Below, one piece after another: positions 1-31,948 of a stretch of 31,948 nucleotides of DNA. A program made the position numbers and the translations under genes. Each line of letters opens with the position of its first letter. Position 1 is the stretch's first letter. Below the pieces are notes generated by a model. That model saw nothing but the letters and a program-made list of their open reading frames with translations, had not been told where the DNA came from and ran no database searches. This DNA is from a virus: positions 1-31,948 of IMG/VR virus record IMGVR_UViG_3300045988_134552; one strand, written 5' to 3'.

Positions 1-137
1 CTTCTCTCGGCCGCTTGGGGAACTGGGCTAACGGCGGTCTTTGGTTCGTTAACGGCTACAACGGCACCGGCAACGCCGGGTGGAACATCGGCTCGCGCCG
101 CTCTGCCAATGGTCGCTCTAGGGGTGAAGCGGCGTAA
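1..137 (+). CDS. C-terminal end of DGR target protein (C-type lectin-fold variable region; ends ...GNWANGGLWFVNGYNGTGNAGWNIGSRRSANGRSRGEAA*). Continuation of the ORF that starts at 30449, via circular/terminal overlap.
   Basis: The frame is open from 30449 to the window end with no stop (checked codon by codon). Bases 1-77 are identical to 31872-31948. Stop TAA at 135-137. The Asn/Gly-rich NxGxNAGxWNIGxR-type tail is typical of DGR variable proteins. Confidence 0.75.
   Translation, partial: SLGRLGNWANGGLWFVNGYNGTGNAGWNIGSRRSANGRSRGEAA
2..99 (+). repeat. DGR variable repeat (VR); a second, identical copy of bases 2-77 is at 31873-31948 (terminal overlap).
   Basis: 98-bp homology to 212-309 with 8 mismatches. 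Seven of the eight fall where the 212-309 copy has A (VR has C, G or T); the eighth is T vs C. Homology ends at 99/309 (G vs T), the expected IMH boundary. Confidence 0.85.
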
Positions 138-143
138 GCCGCG

Positions 144-159
144 AGGGGGCTTGTCCCCT
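144..159 (+). promoter_or_regulatory. GC hairpin 45 bp downstream of the VR homology end (AGGGG-gcttgt-CCCCT); candidate DGR homing stem-loop, absent from the TR side.
   Basis: 5-bp perfect stem with a 6-nt loop, read directly. Position is analogous to the VR-flanking hairpin/cruciform described for Bordetella phage BPP-1. Confidence 0.35.
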
Positions 160-211
160 TATGAAAACAAGCAGGGATTCGCGGCGCGCGGGCTGTCATG
201 TTCTGTTGGCT

Positions 212-309
212 TTCTCTCGGCAACTTGAGGAACAGGGCTAACGGCGGTCTTTGGTACGTCAACGGCAACAACGGCACCGGCAACGCCAGGTGGAACATCG
301 GCTCGCGCC
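212..309 (+). repeat. DGR template repeat (TR).
   Basis: Near-identical to VR 2-99; holds the adenines at 7 of 8 mismatch positions. Non-coding context (only spurious ORFs). Lies immediately upstream of the RT gene. Confidence 0.85.
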
Positions 310-490
310 TATCTGGACAAAACAAGCAATCATTCCAGCTACACATATACTTCCGCCGCGACTACCCGCCGCCGCTGGTGGCGAGCGAGCATTTGGCCTG
401 GGTCAACTGACTGAAATGGCTTTAAGACCACTGGGTTAGTAGCCGACAGGCGAAACCTCAGACAGTATCCAGAGAGAAACGGTCTGAAAA

Positions 491-1669
491 TTGAAGACAT
501 ATTGCAGAGGGCTTCGCATTGACGGAGCCCTCATTTATAGAGCCTACGGTAATTGGCTTAAGGCACCGGCAGGCAAGAAGAACGCCTGGCGCGTGCCGAT
601 TGAATACGGTAGCGTGGCTTCGCTTCTGGCTGAGATAGAGGACGAGGTTCTTCATCGCTCGCTGACATTTCAACCGATCAGACGCCATTGGTACCGCGAG
701 CCAACCAACGGAAAACTACGGCTCATCGGCGTGGAGAGCGTCAAGCAGCAGGTCTGCGATTACGTCGCAATTGAAGCTCTTCATGACTTGTTGCACGCTA
801 AGGTTGGGTTCTGGCAGGTTTCGAGCGTCAAGGGCAAGGGACAGACTATGGCGGCGAATGCCGTGAGTCGCTGGTCTCAGGAGGGTGGCTATTTCGTCCA
901 CCTTGACATTCGCAAATGCTATCCGTCAATCAAGACAGACGTGGTGATAGGCGTCCTTCGCCATTACGTGCGGAGTCCTGATGTCATGTATATATGCAGG
1001 ACGCTGCTCGCCACATACGATGACGGGCTTGAGATCGGCAGTTACTTCAGTCTCCGCATGGCGCAGCTCGTTCTGTCCTTTGGCTACCACTCCGTAGAGG
1101 GCATGCATAAGGTGCGGCGAGGCAACAGCGTCGCGATGGTGTCGCATCAGCTTTGGTACGCAGATGACATCTATCTATTCAGCCAAGACAAGCGCAACTT
1201 GCGCAGCGCCGCGAGGGAATTGCAAAGGTTCCTCCTTAAGCGCTACGGGCTGCATCTCAAGGCATGGAAAATCTGCCGCATATCGAACGATGAGCCGGTG
1301 GATGTCGTCGGGTTCACAGTGCGACCAAACCGCGTGACGCTGCGGCCTTCGCTGTTCATGCGCGCGTGCCGGGCATATCGGAAATACAGGCGATTGCCCA
1401 CTCTCAAGCGCGCGAGGCGCGTGACGAGCTACAACGGCTGGTTCAAGCACTCAGATTCGAGCAGCCTGGTTAGGGACAACGGATTTGACCAGGTATTCAA
1501 AAAAGCAAGGCGGCACGTGAGTGCTGCGGGAAGGAAGAAACATGAGTTATCAGACAGTATCGGCAACGCCGCTCGCACCTGTGCTGATCGAAGCGCGTGC
1601 CGACGGCCTAACGTCCGACGTGTGGATGCGCAAGAACATCCAGAAGGACGTTGCAGACAACGGCATTGA
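491..1669 (+). CDS. DGR-type reverse transcriptase
   Basis: YADDIYLF (YADD box); N-terminal ...GKLRLIGVESVKQ... RT motif-like stretch; C-terminal ...TSYNGWFKHSDSSSL resembles the SYxGxxxH thumb motif of DGR/group II RTs. A TTG start at 491 is the only in-frame start after the upstream stop. The last 40 codons overlap the next gene, so the true 3' end is uncertain. Confidence 0.85.
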   Translation: MKTYCRGLRIDGALIYRAYGNWLKAPAGKKNAWRVPIEYGSVASLLAEIEDEVLHRSLTFQPIRRHWYREPTNGKLRLIGVESVKQQVCDYVAIEALHDLLHAKVGFWQVSSVKGKGQTMAANAVSRWSQEGGYFVHLDIRKCYPSIKTDVVIGVLRHYVRSPDVMYICRTLLATYDDGLEIGSYFSLRMAQLVLSFGYHSVEGMHKVRRGNSVAMVSHQLWYADDIYLFSQDKRNLRSAARELQRFLLKRYGLHLKAWKICRISNDEPVDVVGFTVRPNRVTLRPSLFMRACRAYRKYRRLPTLKRARRVTSYNGWFKHSDSSSLVRDNGFDQVFKKARRHVSAAGRKKHELSDSIGNAARTCADRSACRRPNVRRVDAQEHPEGRCRQRH

Positions 1670-1913
1670 CTCTGGTAAAGCCATCGAGTTCTACCGAGCC
1701 GATGAGATTCACTTCGTACAGGCAGGAGTCCCGACGCTCGACGGTATCACCGCCGCATTCGACGAACTCTGGGCAGCGCACGAGGATGACGGTCTCAGCG
1801 ACACAGAGCGCATCGACAAAATCATCGAGTCGCTTACCGTAACGAAGGCAGCACTCGAAGACACCAATGCCGCACTGCTGGAGATCGGTGACATCGTTGG
1901 AGGCGAAGAGTGA
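1542..1913 (+). CDS. Hypothetical acidic protein (not Avd-like).
   Basis: ORF with a GGAAGG RBS-like stretch before ATG 1542 (MSYQTV...). Overlaps the RT 3' end by 128 nt, so the start is uncertain. Confidence 0.45.
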   Translation: MSYQTVSATPLAPVLIEARADGLTSDVWMRKNIQKDVADNGIDSGKAIEFYRADEIHFVQAGVPTLDGITAAFDELWAAHEDDGLSDTERIDKIIESLTVTKAALEDTNAALLEIGDIVGGEE

Positions 1914-2041
1914 TGGCGAAGATCTACTTCGAAGCGGTCAAGGAAGGGAAGCGGACGCTTGAGAGCGTCCCGAAGCGCTGGCGCACTGCCGTCGCAGCAA
2001 TGCTCGAAGCATCTAAAAAAGACACTGACCAGGAGGAATAA
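1913..2041 (+). CDS. Small protein (42 aa), possibly XkdX-like, preceding the holin.
   Basis: ATG overlaps the upstream TGA. Sequence MAKIYFEAVKEGKRTLESVPKRWRTAV... Size, position before the holin and a Y..VK.G..T.E.V pattern resemble the XkdX family. Confidence 0.3.
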   Translation: MAKIYFEAVKEGKRTLESVPKRWRTAVAAMLEASKKDTDQEE

Positions 2042-2045
2042 TCAA

Positions 2046-2465
2046 ATGGATCTCGCACCTATTTACACGTTTACCGAGCAGCAGGTATGGGCTATCGCTG
2101 GCGCATTCATCCTCATGCTCTTCGACATGGTGAGCGGCATCATTCAGGCAGTCATGAACCGTGAGTTCCGCAGCTCCACGATGCGCACCGGTCTCGGCCA
2201 CAAGGCGGTGCTGGCACTTATCATCCTGCTCGCAATCTGCATCGAAATCCTCAGTTCCCACGTTGCCGGTCTTGGCTTCGGCGGCGTGACCATCTACGTG
2301 GTCTGCGTCGCGATCATCATCATGGAGGTCGCGAGCATCATGGAGAACCTCTGCAAGGCTTATCCCGAGCTTGCAGACCTTCCGGTCATGAAGATCTTCG
2401 AGCATGCGGACGCGGACGCGGTCAACCCTAAGACGGTCGCAGATGAAGTGTACAAGCGCGGCTAG
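2046..2465 (+). CDS. Holin (phage_holin_4_1 / TcdE-like, multi-TM).
   Basis: AGGAGG 9 nt upstream of ATG 2046. Hydrophobic TM segments. ...NREFRSSTMRTGLGHK... and ...ENLCKAYPELA... are typical of this holin family. Confidence 0.7.
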   Translation: MDLAPIYTFTEQQVWAIAGAFILMLFDMVSGIIQAVMNREFRSSTMRTGLGHKAVLALIILLAICIEILSSHVAGLGFGGVTIYVVCVAIIIMEVASIMENLCKAYPELADLPVMKIFEHADADAVNPKTVADEVYKRG

Positions 2466-3147
2466 GCTCCGGCTCGCGGCAGCGCTGCTTCTTGGCATTG
2501 CAGCTGGCTTCAGCGCTTGGATCGGCATTGCAGCTCAGCATGTGCAGTCAGACAGCATAAGCAGCGTTAAGACATACGAGCGCGGCTACAGTGACGGATT
2601 GCAGGACGCACAGCCGATTTATGACAAAAATGCTTCGGAAAAGAGCGGCTATATGCCGCTCTTTTTGCAGAAAGACCCACAATGGGCATCTACCGCCTAT
2701 AGCGACGAGACCATAGGCACCTACGGGTGCGGGCTCACGTGTGCCGCCATGGCGCTGAGCAACGAGCGGGGTGTGCCGGTGACACCTGATGCCCTCGCAA
2801 ACATCGTCGGAGAGACGTGCCTAACAGACCGAGTAAACGATATGGCGAAGTTCACGCAGTTCGCCCATGACAGATACGGATACGACCGAGTTGACACCTT
2901 CTGGGACACTGATAGCGCCCTCGATTATGTCGACGATGGATGGATCGTATTTGCTGGCGTCAGCGGACAGCTAGGAGACCGCGAATACGGTAGCCATGTC
3001 GTAATGATCTGGCGTGCGAACGATGACGGGACGTATGCGCTACGTGACCCGGACGATGGAGCCAACTCAATTAAATCATGGACAAGAGGAGAGCTTGAAG
3101 TCGCCTGCTTCGGATCATTCAACGCAATTAGAGGTGACATACGATGA
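2443..3147 (+). CDS. Signal-anchored (SAR-like, Gly/Ala-rich TM) C39-like cysteine peptidase; putative second lysin.
   Basis: N-terminal AARLRLAAALLLGIAAGFSAWIGIAAQ, then Q...GTYGCGLTCAAMAL (Gln/Cys catalytic arrangement of Peptidase_C39-like domains). Overlaps the holin 3' end; start 2443 or 2404. Confidence 0.55.
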   Translation: MKCTSAARLRLAAALLLGIAAGFSAWIGIAAQHVQSDSISSVKTYERGYSDGLQDAQPIYDKNASEKSGYMPLFLQKDPQWASTAYSDETIGTYGCGLTCAAMALSNERGVPVTPDALANIVGETCLTDRVNDMAKFTQFAHDRYGYDRVDTFWDTDSALDYVDDGWIVFAGVSGQLGDREYGSHVVMIWRANDDGTYALRDPDDGANSIKSWTRGELEVACFGSFNAIRGDIR

Positions 3148-4172
3148 CGATGAAGGGCATCGATATATCTGATTTTCAGCGAGGTCTCGACCTCACTAAA
3201 ATCGATTACGATTTCGTATTCTGCAAGGCGACCGAGGGCATCGATAAGGTTTATTCGACTTGCGACCCGTTTATCCAGACGGCGATCAGTCAGAAGAAGC
3301 TCTATGGCTTCTACCATTTCCTTGACCAGTCCGACCCGGTAAAGCAGGCCGAGTTCTTCTACGCCAACTGCAAGAACTACTTTGGCCGCGGCATCCCGAT
3401 GCTCGACTATGAAGCCTACGGTCGCATTGGAACTGATAAGGCGAAGCTGTTCCTGGATAAGATCTACGAGCTCACCGGTGTTCGCTGCATCGTCTATATG
3501 AGCCGAAGCGTCACCACGGAGGAAGACTGGTCACAGATTGCAAAGAACCACGCACTCTGGGTCGCGCAGTACGCCGACCGCAACGACACTGGATACCAAG
3601 ATTCTCCTTGGCTTCCTGATGGTGGATTCGGTGCCTGGAACAGCTGCGTCATCCATCAATACTCTTCTCACGGACGATTGAACGGGTATGACAAATACCT
3701 CGATCTCGACATCGCATACATGGACAAGCAAGCATGGTTTAAGTATGTTCATGGTGAACAGGCCGGGAATGCTGGCGCGGCTGTGGTTTGCCCCGTTGGT
3801 TCTACGCCTGATCTCGCTGCGGCGGTCATGCGAGGTAAGTACGGCAACGGTGAAGAGCGCAAGGCCAAGCTTGGCGCTCGATTCAACGAGGTTCAAGCCC
3901 TTATAAATCGTGTGGCTACCGCAAGTGCCGACGATCTTGCAGCAGACGTGCTCAACGGAAAGCTTGGCAACGGCGAGACGCGCAAGGCGATTCTTGGTGC
4001 CCGCTATGACGAGGTGCAAGCTGTGGTCAATTCCCGTGCAAACAATGTGGACATCGACGCTCTAGCACGCGCCGTCATTCGTGGTGAGTACGGTGACGGC
4101 GAAGCGCGCCGCGCCAAACTCGGAGTCAATTTCAATGCGGTTCAAAAACGAGTAAACGAACTTCTCAAGTAG
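3144..4172 (+). CDS. Endolysin: GH25 muramidase + 3 x CW_7 cell-wall-binding repeats (Cpl-7-like).
   Basis: N-terminal GIDISDFQ...KATEG...YGFYHF (GH25). Three ~45-aa repeats of the form VxRGxYGNGExRKAxLGxxxxxVQxxxN. Confidence 0.85.
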   Translation: MTMKGIDISDFQRGLDLTKIDYDFVFCKATEGIDKVYSTCDPFIQTAISQKKLYGFYHFLDQSDPVKQAEFFYANCKNYFGRGIPMLDYEAYGRIGTDKAKLFLDKIYELTGVRCIVYMSRSVTTEEDWSQIAKNHALWVAQYADRNDTGYQDSPWLPDGGFGAWNSCVIHQYSSHGRLNGYDKYLDLDIAYMDKQAWFKYVHGEQAGNAGAAVVCPVGSTPDLAAAVMRGKYGNGEERKAKLGARFNEVQALINRVATASADDLAADVLNGKLGNGETRKAILGARYDEVQAVVNSRANNVDIDALARAVIRGEYGDGEARRAKLGVNFNAVQKRVNELLK

Positions 4173-4182
4173 CCTATAGAAT

Positions 4183-4216
4183 AGCCCGCACCCTGAATGG
4201 GGTGCGGGCTATTTGC
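4183..4216. terminator. Bidirectional intrinsic terminator between the convergent endolysin (+) and RHH gene (-).
   Basis: Perfect 11-bp stem AGCCCGCACCC / GGGTGCGGGCT (4183-4193 / 4200-4210), 6-nt loop, then a T-rich run (ATTTGCGTTT). Confidence 0.7.
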
Positions 4217-5024: not shown

Positions 5025-6500
5025 TCATGTACGAATCAGTGTTATTATGCAAAACCAGTTATTGGAGACTTTGATTTCGCGCCCATTGGCGGCTATCGTA
5101 GGGTTCGCAAAGATTTTCTGAGGCTCCACCATTGGATTATTAGACGAACCCTTTTTGGGGTTCGTCTTTTTTTGTTTCGGCTGGAAGTCATCGCCACAGT
5201 AATCGAAGGCGAAGTAAAGCTTGAGTTCATCCCCATCTACTTCAATGAGCCGCACGAACGTATCGATGATTTCTGCCGCGTCTGGTTCCTGTGCGATGTG
5301 ATCGAGCCAAGCGGCTATGTCTTCACCGGACAGGTGCGCACTTTCGCTAGCCTGAGCCTGCCGCAGGTCAGCTTCTAAGGCCGCTTTCTGCTCGCGGAGC
5401 ATATCAACGCGCTCTTTACCGCCGGGCGGTGCTATGCCGTCCTCAATAGCCTGCCAGATACGCTCAAATGCAGCGTCTATGCGCTTGATCTCGCGCTCAA
5501 TGCGCTTGCTCTCCGGTTCCTCCTTCTCTTCATTAATTTCGTCGTAAAGAGCCATTGCGTCAACGATGCGCTGACGTACATCCGGCTTCTTAATCGTTTC
5601 GAGGACGGTGTCGAGCACGGCTTCCTCGACGGCATCACGCCTAAAGGTGCGGCGGCATTTCTTGCACTTGTAGTAGTGGTAGACGCGTCCCGTTTTTGAC
5701 GTGCCGCAGGTGCCAACGTAATACTGGCCGCACTCTGGGCACCACATCTTGCCAGACAACGGATAATCGTTGGTGTCACGTGTCTTGTTGTGCTTGCGCC
5801 CGTTTGAACCCAAAATGCTGTTGATCATGTCCTGGTCTTCACGCGACCAAAGCGCGGGCATGCCGTCTTCGATTCGCACGCCCGCGTAATCGTAAACGCC
5901 GCAGTTCTGTTCGCGCCTGAGCAGCTTTGTTATCACGCCATGCGTCAACGGTTTGCCGCGCTTGCCGCGTTCACCTGCGACGGCACGCTTGATTTCGGCA
6001 ACGGTCGATCCGGCAAAGAGCATGTTTTTCATACGGTGCATCACGGCGGCTTCACGCTCGTTGACCTCGTAATACCCGTTAACGATGTCCCAGCCGTAAT
6101 GAGTGCGACCGTTCGCCATGCCGCGCTGGGCGTTCTTGTTGATTCCGTCTCGGATACGCTCGCTGTCGATTGCGCTTTCCCATTCAGCAAGTACCTCGAG
6201 CATGCCAAGGTTGAGCACGCGCGTTGAGCCTTCGCCAAGGCTCTCGCCGGCATAAAGTATTTCAACACCTGCTTTGCGCAACTTGATACGCGCGAGCGCC
6301 ATTTCATCGCGGTTACGCATAATGCGCGTGACCTTATAGATAACTACATAATCAAATATTCCGAGCTTTGCGTCTTTCATCATCGCTGCCCCAGATTCCC
6401 ATGACCTGTATGTGTACTTGTTAACGCCGATTCTCTCAGCAAACTCATCCCTGTTTGAGTAACCAGCGGCTTTTCTGAGCTTCATAAGCCTAATGTTCAC
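5025..6500 (-). CDS. Chimeric XRE-HTH::large serine recombinase. The catalytic Ser N-terminal half of the resolvase domain is missing, replaced by ~45 aa of Cro/cI-type HTH; the recombinase, zinc-ribbon and coiled-coil domains are intact. Likely not an active integrase.
   Basis: N-terminus MKLRKAAGYSNRDEFAERIGVNKYTYRSWESG is an HTH_XRE match, joined directly to ...FDYVVIYKVTRIMRNRDEMALARIKLRKAGVEIL... (second half of the resolvase catalytic domain). Downstream are a recombinase domain, CPECG...CKKCRR zinc ribbon and coiled coil. The 5' ~150 nt is AT-rich, unlike the rest. Start GTG 6500 with AGGAGA RBS. Confidence 0.6.
   Translation of the reverse strand: MNIRLMKLRKAAGYSNRDEFAERIGVNKYTYRSWESGAAMMKDAKLGIFDYVVIYKVTRIMRNRDEMALARIKLRKAGVEILYAGESLGEGSTRVLNLGMLEVLAEWESAIDSERIRDGINKNAQRGMANGRTHYGWDIVNGYYEVNEREAAVMHRMKNMLFAGSTVAEIKRAVAGERGKRGKPLTHGVITKLLRREQNCGVYDYAGVRIEDGMPALWSREDQDMINSILGSNGRKHNKTRDTNDYPLSGKMWCPECGQYYVGTCGTSKTGRVYHYYKCKKCRRTFRRDAVEEAVLDTVLETIKKPDVRQRIVDAMALYDEINEEKEEPESKRIEREIKRIDAAFERIWQAIEDGIAPPGGKERVDMLREQKAALEADLRQAQASESAHLSGEDIAAWLDHIAQEPDAAEIIDTFVRLIEVDGDELKLYFAFDYCGDDFQPKQKKTNPKKGSSNNPMVEPQKIFANPTIAANGREIKVSNNWFCIITLIRT
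5142..5177 (+). terminator. Strong plus-strand intrinsic terminator embedded in the 3' end of the minus-strand recombinase ORF.
   Basis: 10-bp perfect stem AGACGAACCC / GGGTTCGTCT, loop TTTTTG, then T6-G-T3. The reverse complement has no T-tract, so it is + strand specific. Confidence 0.6.
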
Positions 6501-11189: not shown

Positions 11190-11385
11190 GGTCTCCGGTT
11201 GCTGCGACGGATGCGGCAAGGAAGCCGACTGCACCAACATTAACGAATTCGCAAGGGTGCACGCCTATGACAAGGGCAAGCTGGTCGAGTTCGACATTTG
11301 CAAGAACTGCGTTCACGAGATTTGCGACATGTCGGGTAGCGTTATCGACGTCGTACGTGAATTGAAGCGCCGCCATGGACGTTGA
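11182..11385 (+). CDS. Cys-rich small protein (CCDGCG...C...CKNC).
   Basis: GGAGAGGGA RBS before ATG 11182. Confidence 0.4.
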   Translation: MIKVSGCCDGCGKEADCTNINEFARVHAYDKGKLVEFDICKNCVHEICDMSGSVIDVVRELKRRHGR

Positions 11386-12559
11386 GGTCAAGCGCGACCC
11401 AAAGGGCGTGTGGTACGCGCAGCCGTACCTTGGCAAGGCACCGGACGGGCGGCAGATACGGCCACGTCGTAGCTTCCCGGATGCCAGGACGCGCGATGAA
11501 GCGCAGGCTTTGGCCGATGCCTGGGCTTCGCACCTGACCCTTGACGGCAAGGTCAAGAGCACGCTCATAGTCGACCTGCTTTGGGAGTACATCGAGCAGA
11601 GGATGGTGAAGGGCGTGAGCCTTAACACCGTGAAGAGGTGGTCGCTCTTCACCCGAACCTACGTTGGAAAGTATCTCAAGGGCAAAGTCGCTCGAGACCT
11701 TACCGCTATCGAGCTGAACGACTTCGAGACGCGCCTTGGCGTGAGCAAGAAGGGCGGCGGGCAGGGTCTTTCGCGCAACACGATTATCAGCGTTCACCAC
11801 TTTTTGCGCGGCGCATACAACTTCTGGGTGCGCATCGGCATCTGCGAGAACAACCCAATGCTCATGGTCACAAAGCCGCCGGAGGAACGCCATGAGGCCG
11901 TGAGCATCGACGAATGGGATTACAGGGAGCTCGATGCCACGGTCTGCGAAAAGCTCGACCTTGAGATGCCCGAGAAGCGCTTCATGCGCCAATCGGCCTA
12001 CGCTTTCGCCGCCTGGCTCGCCCTGCATACGGGGATGCGCGTCGGCGAGGTGTGCGCCGTAAGGCGGCGCGACCTCCACCGCGCACAGGGCTTCATCCTC
12101 GTGAGCGGAACGGTCATTGAGATTCCGGGCGGCGGCGTGGCCCGTTCCAACGTGACCAAGAACAAGAAGACGCGGCCCGTGGCGCTAATCGACGAAGAGT
12201 GGGAGCGGATAAGAGCCTATCTCGCGCAACAGGATTCGATTTCAGACGCTTTCACGCCCGATTCGCCACTGGTGAGCGTAGACGGCTCATACATGCGCCC
12301 CACGACCGTCTCAAAGGCTTTCAGCCGTGCTCGCGACCGGGCGGGCATGCCGAAGGCGTACACGTTCCACTCATTGCGCCATACGCACGCCACGTGGTGC
12401 CTTGCCAACGGCGTTGACCTCAAGACGCTCGCAGATCGCTTAGGGCACTCGAACGAAGCGACAACGCTGAAACTCTACGCGCACCTTCTGCCGGGGCGCG
12501 ACCAGGCTGCGGCGCAGGCGTTCAACAGTTTCGCCAAGAAGCTCGGGGACGGAGTGTAA
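11375..12559 (+). CDS. int: Tyrosine recombinase / phage integrase (394 aa) with an N-terminal arm-binding-type domain; appears intact.
   Basis: C-terminal HSLRHTHATWCLANGVDLKTLADRLGHSN...TLKLYAHLL contains the R...HxxR...Y catalytic signature region. N-terminal KGVWYAQPYLGK..GRQIRPRRSF.DARTRDEAQ resembles integrase N-terminal (arm-type) domains. Confidence 0.8.
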   Translation: MDVEVKRDPKGVWYAQPYLGKAPDGRQIRPRRSFPDARTRDEAQALADAWASHLTLDGKVKSTLIVDLLWEYIEQRMVKGVSLNTVKRWSLFTRTYVGKYLKGKVARDLTAIELNDFETRLGVSKKGGGQGLSRNTIISVHHFLRGAYNFWVRIGICENNPMLMVTKPPEERHEAVSIDEWDYRELDATVCEKLDLEMPEKRFMRQSAYAFAAWLALHTGMRVGEVCAVRRRDLHRAQGFILVSGTVIEIPGGGVARSNVTKNKKTRPVALIDEEWERIRAYLAQQDSISDAFTPDSPLVSVDGSYMRPTTVSKAFSRARDRAGMPKAYTFHSLRHTHATWCLANGVDLKTLADRLGHSNEATTLKLYAHLLPGRDQAAAQAFNSFAKKLGDGV

Positions 12560-23086: not shown

Positions 23087-25693
23087 GTGGCTGTCACGTA
23101 CAAAGGTCTGACTATCAAGTTCGGCGGAGATACGACCGAGTTGCAAGGCGCGTTGAAGAGCGTGCAGAGCACGGCGAAGGATACACAGGGGGCGTTGAAG
23201 GACATCAATCGCGCCCTGAAATTCGACCCCGGTAACACGGATTTGCTCGTTGAGAAGGAAAAGCTTCTGAACCGAGCGTACGGCGAGACGAAAGCGAAGC
23301 TCGATGCCTACAAGGCTGCGCTTGCGACGCTCGACGAGAAGAAGCGCAGCGGCGCTGCACTTACCGAGCGCGAGGAAGCGCAGTATTCTAGTCTCAAGGC
23401 GCAAATAGCCATTTGCGAAAACCAGCTTGAGAGCTATTCGGACGATCTTAAGAGCGTCAGCCGCGAAGCCCAGGCATCGAAGAGTAGCCTTTACCAGTTC
23501 GGGCAGACAATCCAAGACAACAGCGACAAGCTGGAGAAGGCCGGCAAGGGTCTTGAGGCTGCCGGAAAGACGATCACCGGTGCCGTCACCGGCACTGCCA
23601 CCGCACTTGTCGGGCTTGCCAGCAGCCAAGAAGAGCAGATCGAGCAGACGCACCAGCTGGACGCCGCCTGGAAGGATGCAGGCGGAACGTCCGAGCAGGC
23701 GCGAAACTCCTATACGCTCTTCTACAAACTGCTTGGAGAAGAGGACACCGCGACCGAGGCCGCGCAGAACCTGTCCCGTCTGACCACCAACCAGCAGGAG
23801 CTGGACAAGTGGAACAACATCGCCGCAGGCTCGTTCTCCAAGTTCGGCGATGCCCTGCCGCTCGAAAATCTCGTGGAAGCATCGCAGGAGACGGCACATA
23901 CCGGCACCGTCACCGGCGGTCTTTCCGATGCCCTCAACTGGGCAACGGCGAGCAACGAGCAGTGGAGCGCCGCGCTCTCCGGCAACCAGGCGGCACAGCA
24001 GGCTTTCAATGACCAGATCGCGCAGGGCGCTACCAAAGAGGACGCTTTCAACGCCGCCCTTGCCGCCTGCGGTGACGAGCAGGAGCGATCTTCGCTCATC
24101 ACCCAAACGCTCGATGGGCTTTACGGCAACATCGGCGAGACGTACCAGGAGACGAACAAAACGATGCTCGACACGCGCGAAGCGCAGGCCGAGTTAAACC
24201 AGAAGATGGCAGAAGCCGGCGAAGCCGCCATGCCCTTCAAGGAGAAGGCGCTCGAGCTTGGGACGACCTTGCTTGAGAAGGTAACGCCGGCGCTTGAGAG
24301 CGTTAGCGACTGGTATAAGTCTTTAACGCCCGAGCAGCAGGACATGGCAACCAACGTCGTGTTGGGGACGGTCGCGTTCGGCGGGCTCACAACCGGCATC
24401 GGCAAGACGCTCCAAAAGGGCGTCGAAATCGGGCAGACGTTCAAGGATGTTGCGGGCGGCTTCGCATCGCTCACCGGCAAGTTCGGCGAGGGCGGCGGCA
24501 CTATCAGCACTGCTGCAACAGGCTTCGGCAGCATCGCCAAGAAGGCTGGCGGACTGGCTACTACTCTTGGTGGCAAGCTCTCGACGGGATGGACATCGTT
24601 CACCGGATTGATTGCCGCAAATCCCATCTTGCTTGGCGTTGCAGCGGTTGCCGCCGCCGTCGCTGGCCTTACGTGGTTCTTCACGCAGACCGAGACGGGC
24701 AAGCAGCTCTGGTCTGATTTCACTGGCTGGATCTCGGAAAAATGGCAAGGCGTGCAGGATTTCTTTGCAGGCGTGCCGGATTTCTGGTCTGGTATTTGGG
24801 ACGGTATAACAGGCAAGGCAGAGGAGGTCAAAACCAGCCTTGGCGAGAAATTCGACGGGATAAGGCAAGGCGCGTCCGATGCTTGGGAAAATCTGAAATC
24901 CAACGCGTCCGATGCTTGGGAAAATCTGAAATCCAACGCGTCCGAAAAATTCGGTGCAATCAGGGATTCGATTCAAACAGATATGGAGACTGGCAAGGTT
25001 GTCGGTTCTTCGGCTTCAAACGCCCTCAAAGCCGCTATGAACGGAGATTGGGACGCGGCGAAGTCGCAAGCCGGTATCGCCTTTCAAGCCATCCAGAGCA
25101 ACATCCAAACGAAGATGGACAATGCGAAAACCAACGCGATAAACGCCGGAAACGCCATCGGCGAAAAGCTTGGGTTCCCCGGACTTGGAAGCAAGGTCGC
25201 TGGCGTTTTTGCCACGATCAAAAGCAACATCACTTCGCCGATCAACGATGCCTGGAACTTCGTGAGCGGCATCCCCGGCAAGATTCAGGGCGCATTCAGC
25301 GGAATCCGAATCAGCTTGCCGCATATCAATATGCCGCACTTCAGCGTCAGCTGGCGCGACATCGGCGGTGTTGTGAAATTGCCGTCCATCAGCGTCAATT
25401 GGTATGCAAAAGGCGCATCTTTCGATAAGCCTTCAATCATCGGCGTTGGCGAAGCAGGACTTGAGCACGTCACGCCCGATGCCAAGCTGCGCACAAGCGT
25501 CAGAGAGAGCGTCGAAGCGGGCATTTCTCGCGTGCTCGACCGCCTAAGCGGAGGCTTCGGTGGCGGTGCTCAGGTGAACGTGACCGTCAACGCGACTGTC
25601 GCGAACAATATGGACGCGTACGCGACAGGCCAGCAGATCGGCGCTGGGATTGCCAGCAGGTTAAAGCAGAAGGGAGTGCCCGTTGGAGCTTAA
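23087..25693 (+). CDS. Tape measure protein (868 aa).
   Basis: AAGAGGTGG RBS and GTG start. Long coiled-coil N-terminal part; Gly-rich TM-like central segment; position. Confidence 0.85.
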   Translation: MAVTYKGLTIKFGGDTTELQGALKSVQSTAKDTQGALKDINRALKFDPGNTDLLVEKEKLLNRAYGETKAKLDAYKAALATLDEKKRSGAALTEREEAQYSSLKAQIAICENQLESYSDDLKSVSREAQASKSSLYQFGQTIQDNSDKLEKAGKGLEAAGKTITGAVTGTATALVGLASSQEEQIEQTHQLDAAWKDAGGTSEQARNSYTLFYKLLGEEDTATEAAQNLSRLTTNQQELDKWNNIAAGSFSKFGDALPLENLVEASQETAHTGTVTGGLSDALNWATASNEQWSAALSGNQAAQQAFNDQIAQGATKEDAFNAALAACGDEQERSSLITQTLDGLYGNIGETYQETNKTMLDTREAQAELNQKMAEAGEAAMPFKEKALELGTTLLEKVTPALESVSDWYKSLTPEQQDMATNVVLGTVAFGGLTTGIGKTLQKGVEIGQTFKDVAGGFASLTGKFGEGGGTISTAATGFGSIAKKAGGLATTLGGKLSTGWTSFTGLIAANPILLGVAAVAAAVAGLTWFFTQTETGKQLWSDFTGWISEKWQGVQDFFAGVPDFWSGIWDGITGKAEEVKTSLGEKFDGIRQGASDAWENLKSNASDAWENLKSNASEKFGAIRDSIQTDMETGKVVGSSASNALKAAMNGDWDAAKSQAGIAFQAIQSNIQTKMDNAKTNAINAGNAIGEKLGFPGLGSKVAGVFATIKSNITSPINDAWNFVSGIPGKIQGAFSGIRISLPHINMPHFSVSWRDIGGVVKLPSISVNWYAKGASFDKPSIIGVGEAGLEHVTPDAKLRTSVRESVEAGISRVLDRLSGGFGGGAQVNVTVNATVANNMDAYATGQQIGAGIASRLKQKGVPVGA
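24872..24937 (+). repeat. Perfect 33-bp tandem duplication inside the tape measure gene (ASDAWENLKSN x2).
   Basis: GCGTCCGATGCTTGGGAAAATCTGAAATCCAAC occurs twice back to back. Confidence 0.9.
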
Positions 25694-26417
25694 GCGCAAG
25701 AGAAACCAAAGCGACAGAATCATGTTCAACGGGCACGACCTGTCGAAGTTCGTCTACTGCAAGGTGCGCCGCCCCATCATGGCTGACGTTTCAGCTAGCT
25801 TCGAGGACGCGCCCGGACGGCACGGAGAATACTTCAAGACCGTTCGCCGTGCCGGGTACGACCTACAGGTTGACATGTGGCTCCGCACCGAGCATCGGCG
25901 CGAGGTCGCAAAGGCGCGGCACGAGCTGGCGGCTCTGCTATGGTCTGACGAGCCTGCGCCGCTCTATCTGCCCGATGACCCAACAAGGTATTTGATGGCG
26001 ATCGTTAGCGGCGCAACCGACCTTGACGAGATCACCGACGATTGCCCGCAGGCAACCGTGACGTTCCATATCGGCGACCCCGACTATTACGGCCAGCATC
26101 GCCGTATGGACGTGAATGGTACGGCAACGTTCGCTGTCGGCGGCACGCTGCCAGCCGCGTTAACCGTGACGGCCAAGCCCGGGGCTTGCAGCTCTTGGCG
26201 CATCACCAACACCGACACAGCCGAGTTCGTGGAGGTGGTGCAGCCGCTGACGTCTTCGAGTGTCGTTCGCATGGACTTCGACAAGGAGCACGTCACGGTC
26301 AACGGCTCCGTTGCCCAGCTCAATATCATGAGCGACTTTTTCACGGTCAAAGACCGTGCGCATATCAAGATTTCTAGCGGCACCGCGACGTTGGAATGGG
26401 AGGAAAGATGGCTTTAG
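25683..26417 (+). CDS. Distal tail protein (Dit-like).
   Basis: Position right after the TMP; ~240 aa. Start uncertain (TTG 25683 with AAGGGAG RBS, or ATG 25722). Confidence 0.6.
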   Translation: MELKRKRNQSDRIMFNGHDLSKFVYCKVRRPIMADVSASFEDAPGRHGEYFKTVRRAGYDLQVDMWLRTEHRREVAKARHELAALLWSDEPAPLYLPDDPTRYLMAIVSGATDLDEITDDCPQATVTFHIGDPDYYGQHRRMDVNGTATFAVGGTLPAALTVTAKPGACSSWRITNTDTAEFVEVVQPLTSSSVVRMDFDKEHVTVNGSVAQLNIMSDFFTVKDRAHIKISSGTATLEWEERWL

Positions 26418-29245
26418 TCAACAAGGTCAACTTTACCCGTTTCAGCCGATGGGGCGTTAACCTTGGGCGGCTCACGTATACCGCTGCAACCCATGAGGAC
26501 GCGACGGACGGCACCGACGAGCTTAAGATCAGGTGCGACGAGGATTTAGGCAAGGGGGAGCGCCTTGTTTGGGTTGACCGCCAAGGCGTCGTACACGAGC
26601 ACATTGTCGACGAAATCGAGCGGCTGCACGATGACAGCGGCAAGCCATATACAAGCGTAACTTGCATCAACTCAATCAACGAGACGTGGGATGACTACAT
26701 CGAGGACAAGCGACCGTCCGGCAGCGTGGCGGTGGCGCTCACGTCAATACTCGCGGGCACGCGCTGGGAGGTTGGCAACTGCGACCAACCAGGCAGCGCT
26801 TCGCACACCTTCTATCACATCAAAGTTCGCGAGGGCTTGAGCGACCTACTCAAGATATGGGGCGGCGAGCTGGAAACCGTCATCGAGACAGACGGCGTGA
26901 GGGTCACGCATCGCTACGTGCGCGTGGTCGCTACGCGCGGCAACCAGCAAAGCCCGAAACGCTTCACGTGGACTAAAGACCTCATAAGCATCAAGCGCAA
27001 GACCGGCAGCGCGAACCCTAAGACGAGGGTTTACGGTTACGGAAAAGGCGTTGAGACGGACGGCGGCGGCTATGGCCGACGCTTGACTTTCGGCGATATA
27101 AACGGCGGCAAGGATTACGTCGAGGATGCCGACGCGACAGAAGTTTGGGGACATCCCGACGGCAACGGCGGCATCGCGCCTGCGGTGGACGTTTACGTTA
27201 ACGAGCAATGCGAGGACGCGGCTCAACTTCTTGCCGAGACGAACGATTACCTTGAGCAAGCCAAAACGCCGACCGTCTCTTATGAAGCAAGCGTGATTGA
27301 CCTGTTTGCTTTCGGTCGGGATTGGGAGGGCGTTGCCGTCGGCGATCGCGTCGCGATCATCGACAAGGGCTTTTCCGATGCCGGAATCAGAATCAAAGGC
27401 CGCGTCTCGAAGCTTTGCCGCGACCTTGTGACCGGAGATGCAACGGTGGTGTTCGGCAACCTGACCGATGACCTCGCAGACATCTTCCAGTCGATGGCTC
27501 AGCAGCTAAAGAGCGGAAGCAACCAGCGTGCGAATTACGACGCGGCGGCTTCCACGTCCGTCTCGTGGCTCAACCAGCTCATGGCGGCGCTCAACAAGGC
27601 GTTTAACGCCGTCGGCACGTACAAGGTCGAGACGTTCGAGCTGGGAACCATCTATTCGAACGTTCCGCTCGATGCAGCAACGGGCGTTCCGCTCAAGGCA
27701 ACGTCAGGCATGTGGGCTGTGAACATCAACGGCATGGGCATCCGCCTTGCCGCATCGCTCACAAGCGACGGTCAATGGAATTGGCGCACCTTCATTACCG
27801 GCGCACAGGTGAGCGCCGATTGCATCAACGCCGGCACGATGCGAGCAGACCGCATCCGCGCGGGCTTGCTCACCGACGAGGTTGGGAAGAACTTCTGGGA
27901 CATGACGACCGGAGAGTTTAGCTTGTCTGCCGGAACGACCATAGACAACAAGCAGATAGCCACGACGGACGCCGTAATCTCGTCCCGCGTCAAGCTGTAC
28001 GCGAAGAACATGAGCGACACGGTTCCGCCAATCAACGCGCAGAACCCTGAGCTTGGATGGTCTGAGACATTGCCGGAATGGAGCAACGGTTGTTACATCT
28101 GGTCTATGGAGCGGGTGACGTTCGGTGACGGCTCCGTGCGCTATACGACACCTGTGCTCGAGAGCGCCTACAACAAGGCATACCAGAGCTCTTACGATTT
28201 AACCGAATCGCTAACCGATCTTGACGGCACCGTGCAGGATTTGGCTAAAGACGGAGTGGTGACGACGGCTGAAGCGGCGGCGGTTAAGAAGGCGATGCAG
28301 GCCGTCGATAAGGAACGCGAAGAGCTCACGAATCAGTACAACTCGCTTAAATCCAACAAGTCGCTCAACCCACAGTTCATCGCGAAGATACTCACGCCGA
28401 AATACACGGCAGCATTCGGGTCTACCGAGGAAGGCGGCGCATACAGCGATTACGCCGAGAAGGTGAACGCCGTACTTGGATGCAAGACGGCTGACACGCT
28501 CAAGGCGGCAATGTATGAGTACGATGCTTCGTACGGCGCGTATTCGTCAGCAGTGAAGAACTACGCTTCGGCGGCGCAGGCAGCACAGCATGCCATCGAG
28601 CAACAAGACGCTTCCGACTATGCGGACGGCATCCTCAGCAACTACGACGAGCAGCTGACCCAGAAGAAGATCTTCGACCGCCTGACGAGCAACGGCGCGG
28701 CTCAGGGTATCTTCCTCGAGAACGGCAAGGTCTATATCAACGCGACATACATGTCTGCCGGAATCATCGCCGATGCCAAAGGCCGCAATTCCTGGAATCT
28801 CAAGACCGGCGAGCTCGTGACAAATTACATGAGCGCGAACGACATCACCGCCAAGGGCACGTTTCGCTGCGGATACGACAGCTACTACACGCTACTCAAC
28901 AACATGGGTCAGATGTCGGGATTCCGTAAGAAATCCGGCGCGTCAAGTGCCTCGCAGGTCGGTTACATCGACTTTTCTTCATCAATGAAAGATTTATCTG
29001 ACAACAAGGTTCTATACGGGCTTCAGATGCAGGCCGAAGGAAGTCTTAGGATTTCCGTTCCGAAGATCTCGGTGTCTAACTCGGCAAGTACGAGCGTAAC
29101 CACAACCAACGCCATTACATCCAACGTGACCATGAAGTACATCAGCAAGATACAGGACAACGGCAATGGATCAATCACCTGGTGGACATCGACGAGGAAC
29201 ATCGATTTCGTAAATGGAATCTGCACACTTTGCAATTTTGATTAG
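26396..29245 (+). CDS. Tail-associated lysin / baseplate hub-like protein (Tal, 949 aa) with an extended C-terminal fibre-like region.
   Basis: Position after Dit; size; an N-terminal ~380 aa typical of prophage-tail endopeptidase-like Tal proteins, then coiled-coil and beta-rich segments. Confidence 0.65.
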   Translation: MGGKMALVNKVNFTRFSRWGVNLGRLTYTAATHEDATDGTDELKIRCDEDLGKGERLVWVDRQGVVHEHIVDEIERLHDDSGKPYTSVTCINSINETWDDYIEDKRPSGSVAVALTSILAGTRWEVGNCDQPGSASHTFYHIKVREGLSDLLKIWGGELETVIETDGVRVTHRYVRVVATRGNQQSPKRFTWTKDLISIKRKTGSANPKTRVYGYGKGVETDGGGYGRRLTFGDINGGKDYVEDADATEVWGHPDGNGGIAPAVDVYVNEQCEDAAQLLAETNDYLEQAKTPTVSYEASVIDLFAFGRDWEGVAVGDRVAIIDKGFSDAGIRIKGRVSKLCRDLVTGDATVVFGNLTDDLADIFQSMAQQLKSGSNQRANYDAAASTSVSWLNQLMAALNKAFNAVGTYKVETFELGTIYSNVPLDAATGVPLKATSGMWAVNINGMGIRLAASLTSDGQWNWRTFITGAQVSADCINAGTMRADRIRAGLLTDEVGKNFWDMTTGEFSLSAGTTIDNKQIATTDAVISSRVKLYAKNMSDTVPPINAQNPELGWSETLPEWSNGCYIWSMERVTFGDGSVRYTTPVLESAYNKAYQSSYDLTESLTDLDGTVQDLAKDGVVTTAEAAAVKKAMQAVDKEREELTNQYNSLKSNKSLNPQFIAKILTPKYTAAFGSTEEGGAYSDYAEKVNAVLGCKTADTLKAAMYEYDASYGAYSSAVKNYASAAQAAQHAIEQQDASDYADGILSNYDEQLTQKKIFDRLTSNGAAQGIFLENGKVYINATYMSAGIIADAKGRNSWNLKTGELVTNYMSANDITAKGTFRCGYDSYYTLLNNMGQMSGFRKKSGASSASQVGYIDFSSSMKDLSDNKVLYGLQMQAEGSLRISVPKISVSNSASTSVTTTNAITSNVTMKYISKIQDNGNGSITWWTSTRNIDFVNGICTLCNFD

Positions 29246-29253
29246 GAGGTCAT

Positions 29254-29649
29254 ATGGCACAGATCACACATTACATGGTGCATGATCCGGTTGGTAACAC
29301 CGAGAGCTATCTGACGGAGTTCGACGCCGAGTTCATTGCACGCGCGGCAGCGGCAAACATCATCTTCATTGCCGTCTACGATGACGGCACGCGTGAGGTT
29401 GTTGACAGCAAGGACGTGGTTAAGCCGAAATCCGCCGACGAGCCGTTCACGCTCGTGACTCCGGTATACGTTGATGACCGAACCGATGCCACGGTTGCAT
29501 GCTTTGATGCCCTGGCTGCAATCGTCAACCCTTCAGTCGCGGTGGCAGCAGAAGACTGTGACACCGAAGCGCAGGCAGATCCGGTTCAGGCTTTCATGGC
29601 GGCGCTTGAGAAGCTGCGAGCGCTAAAGTCTGGCGGCGATACGCAATGA
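29254..29649 (+). CDS. Hypothetical tail-module protein.
   Basis: AGGAGG RBS 6 nt upstream of ATG 29254. Confidence 0.55.
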   Translation: MAQITHYMVHDPVGNTESYLTEFDAEFIARAAAANIIFIAVYDDGTREVVDSKDVVKPKSADEPFTLVTPVYVDDRTDATVACFDALAAIVNPSVAVAAEDCDTEAQADPVQAFMAALEKLRALKSGGDTQ

Positions 29650-30448: not shown

Positions 30449-31948
30449 ATGAGCAAGACGCACATCGCCGATCACGAAACGCTCGAGCGCGTCGCAATCG
30501 CGCTCGAATCCATGGGGGCTTCAACAGTCCCCATTTTTAATGACGAGACTGGACGTTATACGAATGCAAGCATCACTGCATGGCTCGCGAAGATGCGCGA
30601 CGGCAAGAACTACGGCGTTAGTATCCCAAAGGGGAGTGCCACGGCCTGCACCAAGACCGGAGCAAACGCCGGAATCGCGAATCCTAAGCCCGGCGTAATC
30701 GGTCGCGCGGCAATCGACCCGTACGTTAACCACGGCGCGTTCACCTTCTTCGAGGTGAACGGCGGCGTTGATGCGGACGGAACGCCTTATGTCACCGCAA
30801 TCGACGGTGACGGGCGCTTCTCGCGCAAGGACGACACGTGGATCATGACGCCCGTTCTCTACACGCTTGAAACCGAGACGGACGATGCCGTAAACCTCAC
30901 CGTCTCGGACACACGCCAGCCGGGCATGAAGCGGCAGCCCGCCGCACTGCTGCCGAACGGTGCGCAGCGTCCTTATATGTTGTATGCAAAGTATGCACTG
31001 TCGGTCGATGCCGAAGGCAAGCCGCGAAGCGTGAGCGGCGCGCAGGTGAAGCGCTTCGTAAGCCACGATACCGGCGTCTCGCTCATGAAAACGGCAACGA
31101 AGGGTGATTCATTCAAAACTGCCGCCGATGACTGGTATGTCAAGGTCATGTTCCTCTTGAAGTATGCCACCAAGAACAGCCAGAGCGTGTTCGCGGGCTG
31201 CACGGGATACGACGTACAGATGATCCCGACCGTGGCAGAGAGCAACACCACGCGCGTCGTGGTCGCGAAGGAGAAGGCCGATCAGATTCTTATCGGCTCT
31301 TCGATGATTCTGGGAACACATACGGGCACGTCGAACGACCGTGGCAATGGCTACAACTATGACGTGTTCGATGCCGCGACCGTTATCAAGAAGGTCGATA
31401 TCGACGCATCGAACACAGCCATATACTTCGACGTCGCGAAGCCGTTCACGACTGCCACCACATACCTTTTGAGCACCGTCCCGTGGAGGGCTGGCGCTTG
31501 CGATGCGGTTGAGGGCGACGGATCGCCGACGAGCTGCACGGACGGAAAGCAGCCCTTTGTCGTTCAGGGTATCGAGCTCGGCCTTGGAATGCTTGAGGTT
31601 CTTGGAAACGTCCTAATCCAGTACACAGGTACTGGCGCGGTCGTTTACGTGAACCCGGACACTAAGAACGAGAAGGCCGGCAGCTCACCGGACAGCGCGC
31701 TGTCTGCCGGGGCTTTTCCCGGACAAGCAGCTGAGGGATGGAATTACGCTCTTTACTGCAAGACGGTCAACGGCCTGATGATTCAGCAGGGAACGGGTGC
31801 GTCGACTTCAGTTGGCATCTGCGACGGCAACTACAAGGTCGCTGACACTACCGTCGGTTGGAGAGAGTGGCCTTCTCTCGGCCGCTTGGGGAACTGGGCT
31901 AACGGCGGTCTTTGGTTCGTTAACGGCTACAACGGCACCGGCAACGCC
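30449..31948 (+). CDS. DGR target gene (N-terminal ~500 codons). Putative receptor-binding/tail-fibre protein with a C-terminal C-type lectin-fold VR. Continues to the stop at 135-137 after the circular junction; ~519 aa in total.
   Basis: ATG 30449 directly after the upstream stop. The frame was verified open to the window end. Last gene of the tail module. VR copy at 31873-31948. Confidence 0.75.
   Translation, partial: MSKTHIADHETLERVAIALESMGASTVPIFNDETGRYTNASITAWLAKMRDGKNYGVSIPKGSATACTKTGANAGIANPKPGVIGRAAIDPYVNHGAFTFFEVNGGVDADGTPYVTAIDGDGRFSRKDDTWIMTPVLYTLETETDDAVNLTVSDTRQPGMKRQPAALLPNGAQRPYMLYAKYALSVDAEGKPRSVSGAQVKRFVSHDTGVSLMKTATKGDSFKTAADDWYVKVMFLLKYATKNSQSVFAGCTGYDVQMIPTVAESNTTRVVVAKEKADQILIGSSMILGTHTGTSNDRGNGYNYDVFDAATVIKKVDIDASNTAIYFDVAKPFTTATTYLLSTVPWRAGACDAVEGDGSPTSCTDGKQPFVVQGIELGLGMLEVLGNVLIQYTGTGAVVYVNPDTKNEKAGSSPDSALSAGAFPGQAAEGWNYALYCKTVNGLMIQQGTGASTSVGICDGNYKVADTTVGWREWPSLGRLGNWANGGLWFVNGYNGTGNA

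Follow-up and report, generated by a model that had tools for sequence, protein, structure and literature searches.

A probable diversity-generating retroelement at the distal tail protein gene of a Collinsella siphovirus

Diversity-generating retroelements (DGRs) have been catalogued in their tens of thousands and are especially common in gut phages, where they target tail proteins (PMC8144416). Among the closest described systems is the DGR of the Bordetella phage BPP-1, which comprises a variable repeat (VR) in the gene mtd, the accessory gene avd, a template repeat (TR) and the reverse transcriptase (RT) gene brt (mtd-VR/avd/TR/brt). Two residues of its RT (bRT), R74 and I181, promote adenine mutagenesis, and the signature motif of DGR RTs is [I/V/L]GxxxSQ (PMC7826257). 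Accessory genes are not universal: Architecture A, which has none, accounts for 29% of 372 curated DGRs, and an avd-less Lineage 3 has also been noted (PMC5758913). Here we examine a stretch of viral DNA of 31,948 nucleotides (IMG/VR record IMGVR_UViG_3300045988_134552, positions 1 to 31,948; hereafter the window), in which a pair of repeats is followed by an RT gene. A first-pass annotation of this DNA had read the repeat and the RT as a DGR, and this reading is upheld by an adenine bias in 59 TR/VR pairs, by the affinity of the RT to bRT and by the place of the target in the tail module. With a probability of roughly 0.9, we take the locus to be a complete DGR that diversifies the C-terminal ligand-binding surface of a distal tail protein in a Collinsella siphovirus. 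Direct support comes from the anatomy of the TR/VR pair, its adenine specificity, the passage of information from TR to VR, the A-templated variation among relatives, the affinity to bRT, the predicted fold of the target and covarying helices in RNA and DNA. The principal parts of the element are the following.

1..105, + strand: VR (core 2-99; homology from 31868 over the circular junction), encoding residues 476-507 of the 519 of the target
208..315, + strand: TR (core 212-309), with 22 adenines and IMH* (the template counterpart of the initiation of mutagenic homing sequence, IMH) at its 3' end (300-317)
491..1669, + strand: RT gene, TTG start, 392 aa; conserved part to ~1573; YADD at 1157-1168, IGSYFSL at 1034-1054
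30449..31871, + strand: 5' part of the target gene, ATG at 30449, continuing over the junction to 137; 519 aa in total
1..137, + strand: 3' end of the target gene, its last 45 codons with TAA at 135-137; frame-3 translation SLGRLGNWANGGLWFVNGYNGTGNAGWNIGSRRSANGRSRGEAA, then stop
31872..31948, + strand: terminal duplicate of window 1-77, the assembly overlap of a circular contig; same VR, no second target

The ungapped alignment of 2-99 with 212-309 reproduces exactly the 98-bp repeat that had been reported earlier. Seven of its eight mismatches fall on an A of the 212-309 copy (the facing VR bases are C12, G13, G18, T24, T46, T57 and G78), and the eighth, TR C260 against VR T50, is a private synonymous change in the VR (GTC to GTT, Val), the close relatives all having C in both TR and VR. 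As the TR core contains 22 A among 98 bases, the hypergeometric probability of at least seven out of eight mismatches on A is p = 8e-5. An independent repeat search recovers the pair as 2-105 / 212-315 with 90% identity. The abrupt end of homology that the first-pass annotation had placed at 99/309 holds in part: the sequences do diverge at 100-101/310-311, where two IMH/IMH* mismatches lie (G100/T310 and C101/A311), but homology resumes beyond them to 105/315 and also extends 4 nt upstream (TGGC, 31868-31871, over the circular junction), which brings the full repeat length to 109 nt. The TR adenines are distributed unevenly over the codons, with 13 at the first position, nine at the second and none at the third. 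AAC accounts for eight of the codons, no stop can be reached by adenine substitution, and ~4.4e12 protein variants are accessible. A BLAST search of the genome with the TR found no second VR.

To follow this pattern beyond the window, 78 loci encoding relatives of the RT were retrieved and the 1.5 kb upstream of each RT was searched for direct repeats by self-BLAST. About 60 loci share a common layout of VR, ~105 nt, TR, ~170 nt and RT. In the 59 distinct TR/VR pairs obtained from these related Collinsella/Coriobacteriales prophages, 742 of 805 mismatches are located at TR adenines, so that the mismatches track the adenines of the template in this larger alignment as had been anticipated. Expressed per template base, 54% of A are mismatched; for C, G and T the figures are 0.6%, 0.8% and 3%, the last mostly owing to the fixed IMH/IMH* difference. 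The window and two related loci (L042 and L002) have an identical 109-nt TR, while their VRs differ mutually at many A-templated sites; in three other loci (L001, L003 and L005), lineage-specific non-A variants of the TR are mirrored in their own VRs. Together, identical TRs with differing VRs and mirrored non-A variants imply that information passes from TR to VR, faithfully save at adenines, and has done so recently. As a surrogate for within-population read heterogeneity we used the residue variability of 33 targets at least 92% identical to that of the window: 41% of the positional entropy lies within the 32 VR residues, and of the 13 positions that show at least four residue types, 11 correspond to A-containing TR codons. 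These comparative data indicate that the DGR has been recently active in the lineage, and the element is probably active.

Seven of the related loci (L018, L020, L029, L051, L072, L075 and L078) have one repeat in place of the VR and TR and lack 210 bp. The first four carry it ~290-390 nt upstream of the RT, as a chimera whose 5' part is VR-like with substituted adenines and whose 3' part is TR-like, followed by the TR flank. Such a collapse is either a real recombination between VR and TR that killed the DGR, or a collapse of the repeat by the assembler.

The first 77 nt of the window are exactly its last 77 nt (1-77 vs 31872-31948). The contig therefore represents a circular phage genome of 31,871 bp, and because this genome was linearised within the VR, the target gene is split over both window ends. 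The earlier claim of an element complete within 1-1669 thus has to be given up, only the last 45 target codons being located there and the rest at 30449-31871; on the circular sequence, across the junction, the element is complete. The break point lies within the hypervariable VR, a position that VR heterogeneity may have produced by way of a bubble in the assembly graph.

The RT begins about 180 bp 3' of the template copy and carries YADD, as the first-pass annotation had it: its ORF (open reading frame) spans 491-1669, which leaves a gap of 176-182 nt to the TR. It is matched by Pfam RVT_1 (4e-12) and by phrog_1423 of PHROG (5e-51). The TTG start at 491 aligns with the ATG or GTG starts and the conserved MK(S/T)YC N-terminus of its relatives, most of which are 361-366 aa long, and the last ~26 codons in the window are an unconserved read-through into the next gene. 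Searched against solved structures, the single RT sequence has 8ub7_A as its top match over the full length (E 3.5e-7), and a family profile of 26 members raises this full-length match to 7.8e-18, the next RT, of group II type, following at 2.4e-8. The numbering of 8ub7_A (I181-Q187; D215, D216) agrees with that of the BPP-1 bRT (10.1101/2023.10.23.563531). Residues R74, I76, I181 and G182 of bRT correspond to the conserved R77, I79, I182 and G183 of the RT family, in which R77 and I182 are invariant. At the level of sequence, it is thus supported that the RT belongs with the DGR RT of BPP-1 rather than with group II or retron RTs, which is also what had been supposed.

The target is the last gene of the tail module. 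Upstream of it are encoded the tape measure protein (TMP; 23087-25693), Dit (25683-26417) and Tal (26396-29245), followed by a 131-aa ORF, a BppU_N-domain protein (29646-30446) and, from 30449, the target itself. The target has no Pfam match, nor a PDB match in a profile-versus-PDB sequence search, and belongs to a large, unannotated family with members of 517-522 aa. Its predicted structural model, however, has as its top structural match TaqVP, a DGR variable protein (PDB 5vf4), which supports a predicted C-type-lectin-type variable-protein fold, the lectin-like (CLec) fold that the first-pass annotation had envisaged. In six relatives (P0215-P0218, P0224 and P0234; 830-907 aa) a BppU_N baseplate domain and the DGR target are fused, while the window keeps the BppU_N protein and the target as separate neighbours (29646-30446 and 30449 onward). 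Taken with the predicted fold, the TMP-Dit-Tal-BppU_N-target synteny and these fusions make a receptor-binding role plausible, so that the target, recognised earlier as the terminal tail-module gene, may well be a receptor-binding distal tail protein.

The 3' end of the VR and its surroundings contain three further elements.

90..107, + strand: IMH, GC-rich GGCTCGCGCC (90-99, common to TR) and then GCTCTGCC, where the TR has TATCTGGA
129..142, + strand: hairpin/cruciform after the VR, GCGGC-GTAA-GCCGC, from a DNA fold; stop codon in the 4-nt loop; 24 nt past the homology
144..159, + strand: second GC-rich hairpin, GGGGGC-TTGT-CCCC then TT, from a DNA fold; covarying stems in relatives

The T310/G100 difference is a fixed one in the whole family, with 32 T>G cases. 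We interpret the VR and TR ends as IMH and IMH* by analogy with BPP-1, whose IMH/IMH* arrangement provides a precedent for a divergence of VR and TR ends (PMC3240598). Efficient retrohoming in BPP-1 and other phage DGRs requires a GC-rich hairpin, with a loop of 4 nt, that is located 4-34 bp past the VR (PMC3240598). Compared with this published set, the post-VR hairpin of the window has a shorter stem (5 bp vs 7-10 bp) and a GNRA instead of a GRNA loop; in relatives it is maintained by compensatory stems, i.e. TTCCCGC/GCGGGAA, TCGCC/GGCGA, TCGGCCGC/GCGGCCGA and GGGCGGC/GCCGCCC. The second hairpin (144-159) was not called in a terminator scan; it is a possible terminator of the tail operon.

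The TR is flanked by two conserved segments of the presumed DGR RNA.

172..207, + strand: conserved 5' segment of the DGR RNA upstream of the TR, CAGGGATTCGCGGCGCGCGGGCTGTCATG...; 179-186 is the 5' strand of helix P1
316..490, + strand: spacer RNA between TR and RT; P1 3' strand at 354-361; hairpins at 365-389, 402-411 and 431-461 (inner 442-451); UCCAG at 468-472

The block 172-200 upstream of the TR is near-invariant across 41 loci, and the 175-nt spacer is highly conserved. The Rfam motif RT-19 (RF03073) aligns over its full length to 361-462 of the spacer with a score of 23.2 bits, below its gathering score of 78.3, which was not reached in any of 15 related loci either; the likeness is thus confined to shape and position. 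In a distant DGR (L040), whose RT is 24% identical, Rfam RT-18 is found above its gathering score at 3667-3743 between TR and RT, which supports the notion that several RT-n motifs in Rfam represent spacer RNAs of DGRs.

A structure of six helices was tested by pair counting on an alignment of 41 distinct sequences. RNAalifold was run on a MAFFT alignment of the spacer and missed hairpin 1 because of the gap placement in that alignment; the helix of hairpin 1 was instead defined from the Rfam alignment. Under the six-helix model 96.1% of the cells are paired, as against 34-44% with the partners slid, a control that is biased in favour of the model since the structure was derived from the same sequences. 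Independent of this bias are the compensatory changes, which occur in 13 of the 32 pairs, and none of 500 shuffles reaches the observed covariation. Helix P1 (179-186:354-361), with three covarying pairs and 97% of its cells paired, brackets the TR into a loop. In addition, CUGGA in the 3' flank of the TR (313-317) pairs with UCCAG (468-472) of the spacer; four of these pairs are invariant, and the pair that flanks CUGG:CCAG covaries (AU 14, GU 11, UA 8, GC 2). We regard this pairing as a candidate template-primer duplex. A nearer CCAG (334-338) was considered as the partner of the TR 3' flank and rejected: it is 78.7% paired, shows no covariation and is absent in distant relatives. The segments GACC (426-429) and GGTC (481-484) are likewise complementary; a string search finds both in 34 of the 41 sequences, where they are invariant or poorly aligned.

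Several observations weigh against the interpretation of the locus as a complete and functional DGR. Only seven of the 22 TR adenines have been altered in the window VR, where most relatives show more, and the VR part of the structural model of the target has low confidence, with a predicted local distance difference test score (pLDDT) below 50 at residues 474-504. The presumed template-primer duplex CUGG:CCAG rests on invariant bases and one covarying pair, and it crosses P1 to form a pseudoknot, unlike the nested topology of BPP-1. A promoter scan found no sigma-70 promoter upstream of the TR, and the TTG start of the RT lacks an obvious Shine-Dalgarno sequence. A private G-to-A change at 388 breaks the conserved pair 366:388 of spacer hairpin 1 (C-G to C-A), the base being G in all 40 other aligned relatives; either a sequencing error or a genuine mutation with a slight weakening effect on the RNA could account for it. 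No NCBIfam model captures the RT, the best match being the group II model TIGR04416, far below threshold (49.8 bits vs a cut-off of 300); retron St85 scores 26.6 vs 235 and Drt3a and Drt5 stay below 14 bits. We judge the sub-threshold group II match to be uninformative rather than contrary. A scan of ~35 ORFs of the window brought up no Avd, HRDC or MutS-like gene, and Avd is essential in BPP-1. Since Architecture A and the avd-less Lineage 3 are known, the absence of avd here is known biology and not a defect. Finally, the RT signature [I/V/L]GxxxSQ reads IGSYFSL, in which I, G and S are kept and the replacement of Q by L is invariant in 26 family members. The substitution Q187P in bRT leaves the frequency of adenine misincorporation unaltered (PMC7826257). 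Together with the textbook A-specific pattern of the clade, this suggests that IGxxxSL is a variant of the signature and that the deviation from Q to L is probably tolerated.

Some of these observations would also fit a recently inactivated relic of intact anatomy, in which retrohoming has ceased and whose VR differences the window genome merely inherited from an active ancestor. The mutation at 388 and the mere seven substituted adenines could be taken as signs of decay, as could the RT ORF, which extends 26 codons beyond the usual stop of the family, and the VR/TR collapse in seven related loci demonstrates that the module can decay. Nevertheless we consider a relic improbable. The RT ORF is uninterrupted, with every invariant residue of the family retained. 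The TR, whose adenines are fully kept, is shared unchanged with L042 and L002, and the differing VRs beside it imply that the lineage was active very recently. A single C-A mismatch within a stem of 8 bp would, moreover, hardly be lethal.

Alternatively, part of the VR could be an assembly chimera, i.e. a consensus allele drawn from a heterogeneous population and carried by no single genome. The 77-nt terminal overlap lies wholly within the VR and chimeric VR/TR collapses occur in related assemblies; both ends, however, match without exception over those 77 nt, the VR stays in frame, and it departs from the TR in no unexpected way. A chimera is therefore very improbable, and it would change the details of the allele, not the identity of the element. 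Next to impossible, finally, is an ordinary duplication or gene-conversion tract with a chance A bias beside an RT from a group II intron, a retron or a defence retroelement: the top NCBIfam matches are indeed group II and retron models and PADLOC returns weak generic RT matches (<=44 bits), but the group II match falls far short of its cut-off, the A bias of p = 8e-5 in the window recurs in 59 pairs, bRT is the closest solved relative by ten orders of magnitude, and an Rfam scan detected neither intron RNA domains nor retron msr/msd.

A complete, probably active DGR being the preferred reading, its operation could be pictured as follows. An RNA covering ~172-490 would be transcribed, holding the invariant 109-nt TR bracketed by the 179-186:354-361 duplex. 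Its RT-19-like structured spacer would dock the RT, and the pairing of CUGGA (313-317) with UCCAG (468-472) would set a spacer nucleotide beside the TR 3' end for priming in cis. The RT would then copy the TR into complementary DNA (cDNA), misincorporating opposite its 22 adenines, and the cDNA would replace the VR, directed by the GC-rich IMH and the hairpin at 129-142. The outcome would be up to ~4e12 variants at 14 codons, with no reachable stops. The predicted priming group is the 2'-OH of G472 or A473, beside the 313-317:468-472 duplex, from which the cDNA would begin at U312 or A311. The priming in cis and the exact priming nucleotide, like the role of the post-VR hairpin and a switching of tropism, are presumed here by analogy with BPP-1.

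Independence from Avd is suggested solely by the lack of a detectable avd gene, which directs attention to the gene that follows the RT.

1542..1913, + strand: orf123, a conserved acidic 123-aa protein with an isoelectric point (pI) of 4.2; overlaps the RT 3' end

This gene is a weak candidate for an accessory factor, or else an ordinary gene of the tail or lysis module. It has no Pfam, PHROG or PADLOC match, a profile-versus-PDB search gave noise only, and its AlphaFold2 (AF2) model is poor (pLDDT 58; predicted template modelling score, pTM, 0.25). It could stand in for Avd in this clade as a dedicated accessory protein, in the manner of the acidic CH1 of Avd-less Bacteroides DGRs. It is the sole accessory-gene candidate detected, and it lies at a fixed offset after the RT in 73 of 78 loci and, when loci are retrieved by means of orf123, in 55 of 57, even where RTs are only 24-30% and targets ~30% identical; its acidity, too, resembles that of CH1 (pI 4.7; PMC5758913). 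On the other hand, homologues occur between tail-fibre genes and the holin without an RT (L128) or with a 3' remnant of one (L109), and small genes of the tail/lysis module typically occupy such a position, with a small phrog_1382 ORF and then the holin lying downstream. Moreover, orf123 is shorter than CH1 (123 vs 160-169 aa), to which it is likened by properties, and its structure model is uninformative. We therefore regard a dedicated Avd substitute as doubtful. Quite unlikely is the broader proposition that the clade carries out Avd-independent mutagenic retrohoming with an IGxxxSL RT, an RT-19-like RNA in which P1 and the template-primer pairing form a pseudoknot, and orf123, translationally coupled to the RT, as a new accessory in Avd's place.

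The RT ORF overlaps orf123 by 128 nt in another frame (1542-1669), compared with ~35 nt in relatives, because the RT of the window runs ~26 codons past the stop of most relatives. At 3841-4372 of L109, the orf123 homologue (57% identical) is preceded by a remnant of the last ~90 RT residues; this locus has different tail-fibre genes and no TR/VR, which suggests a module exchange with its junction inside the RT gene.

Downstream of the RT follow the 123-aa acidic ORF, a 42-aa ORF, a holin, a C39-like peptidase and a GH25/CW_7 endolysin, and beyond the endolysin, on the opposite strand, a serine recombinase. The Peptidase_C39_2-like gene (2404-3147) is situated between the holin and endolysin genes and overlaps the former by 62 nt; the order holin, Peptidase_C39_2-like gene, endolysin is kept in related prophages (L079-L084). 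The serine recombinase is a large one with an N-terminal helix-turn-helix (5025-6500, - strand), beside the lysis module, and a second site-specific recombinase, a tyrosine recombinase of the Phage_integrase family (11375-12559, + strand), is located within the early/replication region. The related loci are prophages of Collinsella aerofaciens, other Collinsella, Senegalimassilia and other Coriobacteriales, inserted at several different chromosomal sites, and the genome is that of a temperate siphovirus of a Gram-positive host, Collinsella (Coriobacteriales). Two contigs with a Collinsella-type phage module (L066 and L068) were binned as Alistipes onderdonkii and Bacteroidaceae, names that most likely result from mis-binning of phage contigs rather than from a host range crossing phyla. 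A megablast search of deposited phages with window 1-4200 gave no match, and no close isolated or deposited phage was found, the top protein identity in INPHARED being 31%.

The comparison with BPP-1 reveals a common ground plan. Both systems have an adenine-specific TR/VR pair with the VR at the 3' end of a tail gene for receptor binding, a role that is putative in the window, and share a DGR-type variable-protein fold of the target, which in the window is a predicted one. Downstream of a GC-rich IMH both carry a GC-rich hairpin, its loop 4 nt long, with a stop codon nearby (PMC3240598). The RT is homologous to bRT over its full length and keeps the equivalents of R74 and I181. Similarly, a structured RNA encloses the TR: the segments before and after it pair with each other, and the spacer pairs with its 3' end (10.1101/2023.10.23.563531), P1 resembling the upstream:spacer 'cPRT Stop' duplex of BPP-1. 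Unlike BPP-1, the locus has no avd and a VR-TR gap of only ~105 non-coding nt, the RT motif is IGxxxSL instead of IGxxxSQ, and the spacer RNA is weakly RT-19-like, whereas that of BPP-1 is Rfam RT-10 (PMC5737381). The long-range pairings are crossed here and nested and adjacent in BPP-1, and the host of the window phage belongs to the Gram-positive Actinomycetota.

In its organisation the element resembles Architecture A1 (target-TR-RT) and the avd-lacking Lineage 3 (PMC5758913), with which it shares a TR-RT core, a target upstream on the same strand and the lack of any avd, HRDC or MutS-like (MSL) gene. Lineage 3A has been described only from Bacteroides and relatives (PMC5758913), and the likeness is one of architecture; should orf123 be an accessory gene, the layout would instead be like Architecture E (CH1). 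TaqVP of Thermus aquaticus (PDB 5vf4) is only 11-15% identical in sequence to the target, which has an extra N-terminal region of ~220 residues for baseplate attachment. With RT-19 (RF03073), one of the RT-n motifs of Weinberg et al. 2017, the spacer shares its position between repeat and RT gene, a 5' ACUACC leader with hairpin, a second GUAG...CGAA hairpin and an alignment to the full model; it differs in not being a member by gathering score and in having an extra middle hairpin and long-range pairings outside the model.

The general picture of DGR biology is unchanged by these results. They add, however, a well-documented DGR family, to all appearance active, that resides in prophages of Collinsella, an actinobacterium abundant in the gut, and because several cultured isolates carry the element (L048, L054, L056 and L060), experiments are feasible. 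Among these isolates are Collinsella sp. CLA-ER-H5 (L048), Collinsella sp. i06-0019-1H4 (L056) and C. aerofaciens 1033st1 (L060). The clade could serve as a test case of how Avd-less DGRs assemble a priming-competent ribonucleoprotein (RNP), and of whether the Q of the signature matters for adenine mutagenesis, since here Q is replaced by L while the A-specific pattern is fully kept; the covariation-supported RNA model provides specific nucleotides to mutate. The Avd-less RNP, the SQ-to-SL motif and the RNA model are therefore useful leads for DGR specialists. As regards the gut phage DGRs surveyed by Roux et al. 2021 (PMC8144416), the host clade Coriobacteriia has been little discussed for DGRs, while the window shares with them a gut phage as carrier, a tail protein as target, a C-type-lectin-like VR domain and, as inferred for them from population data, what may be a constant low-level diversification.

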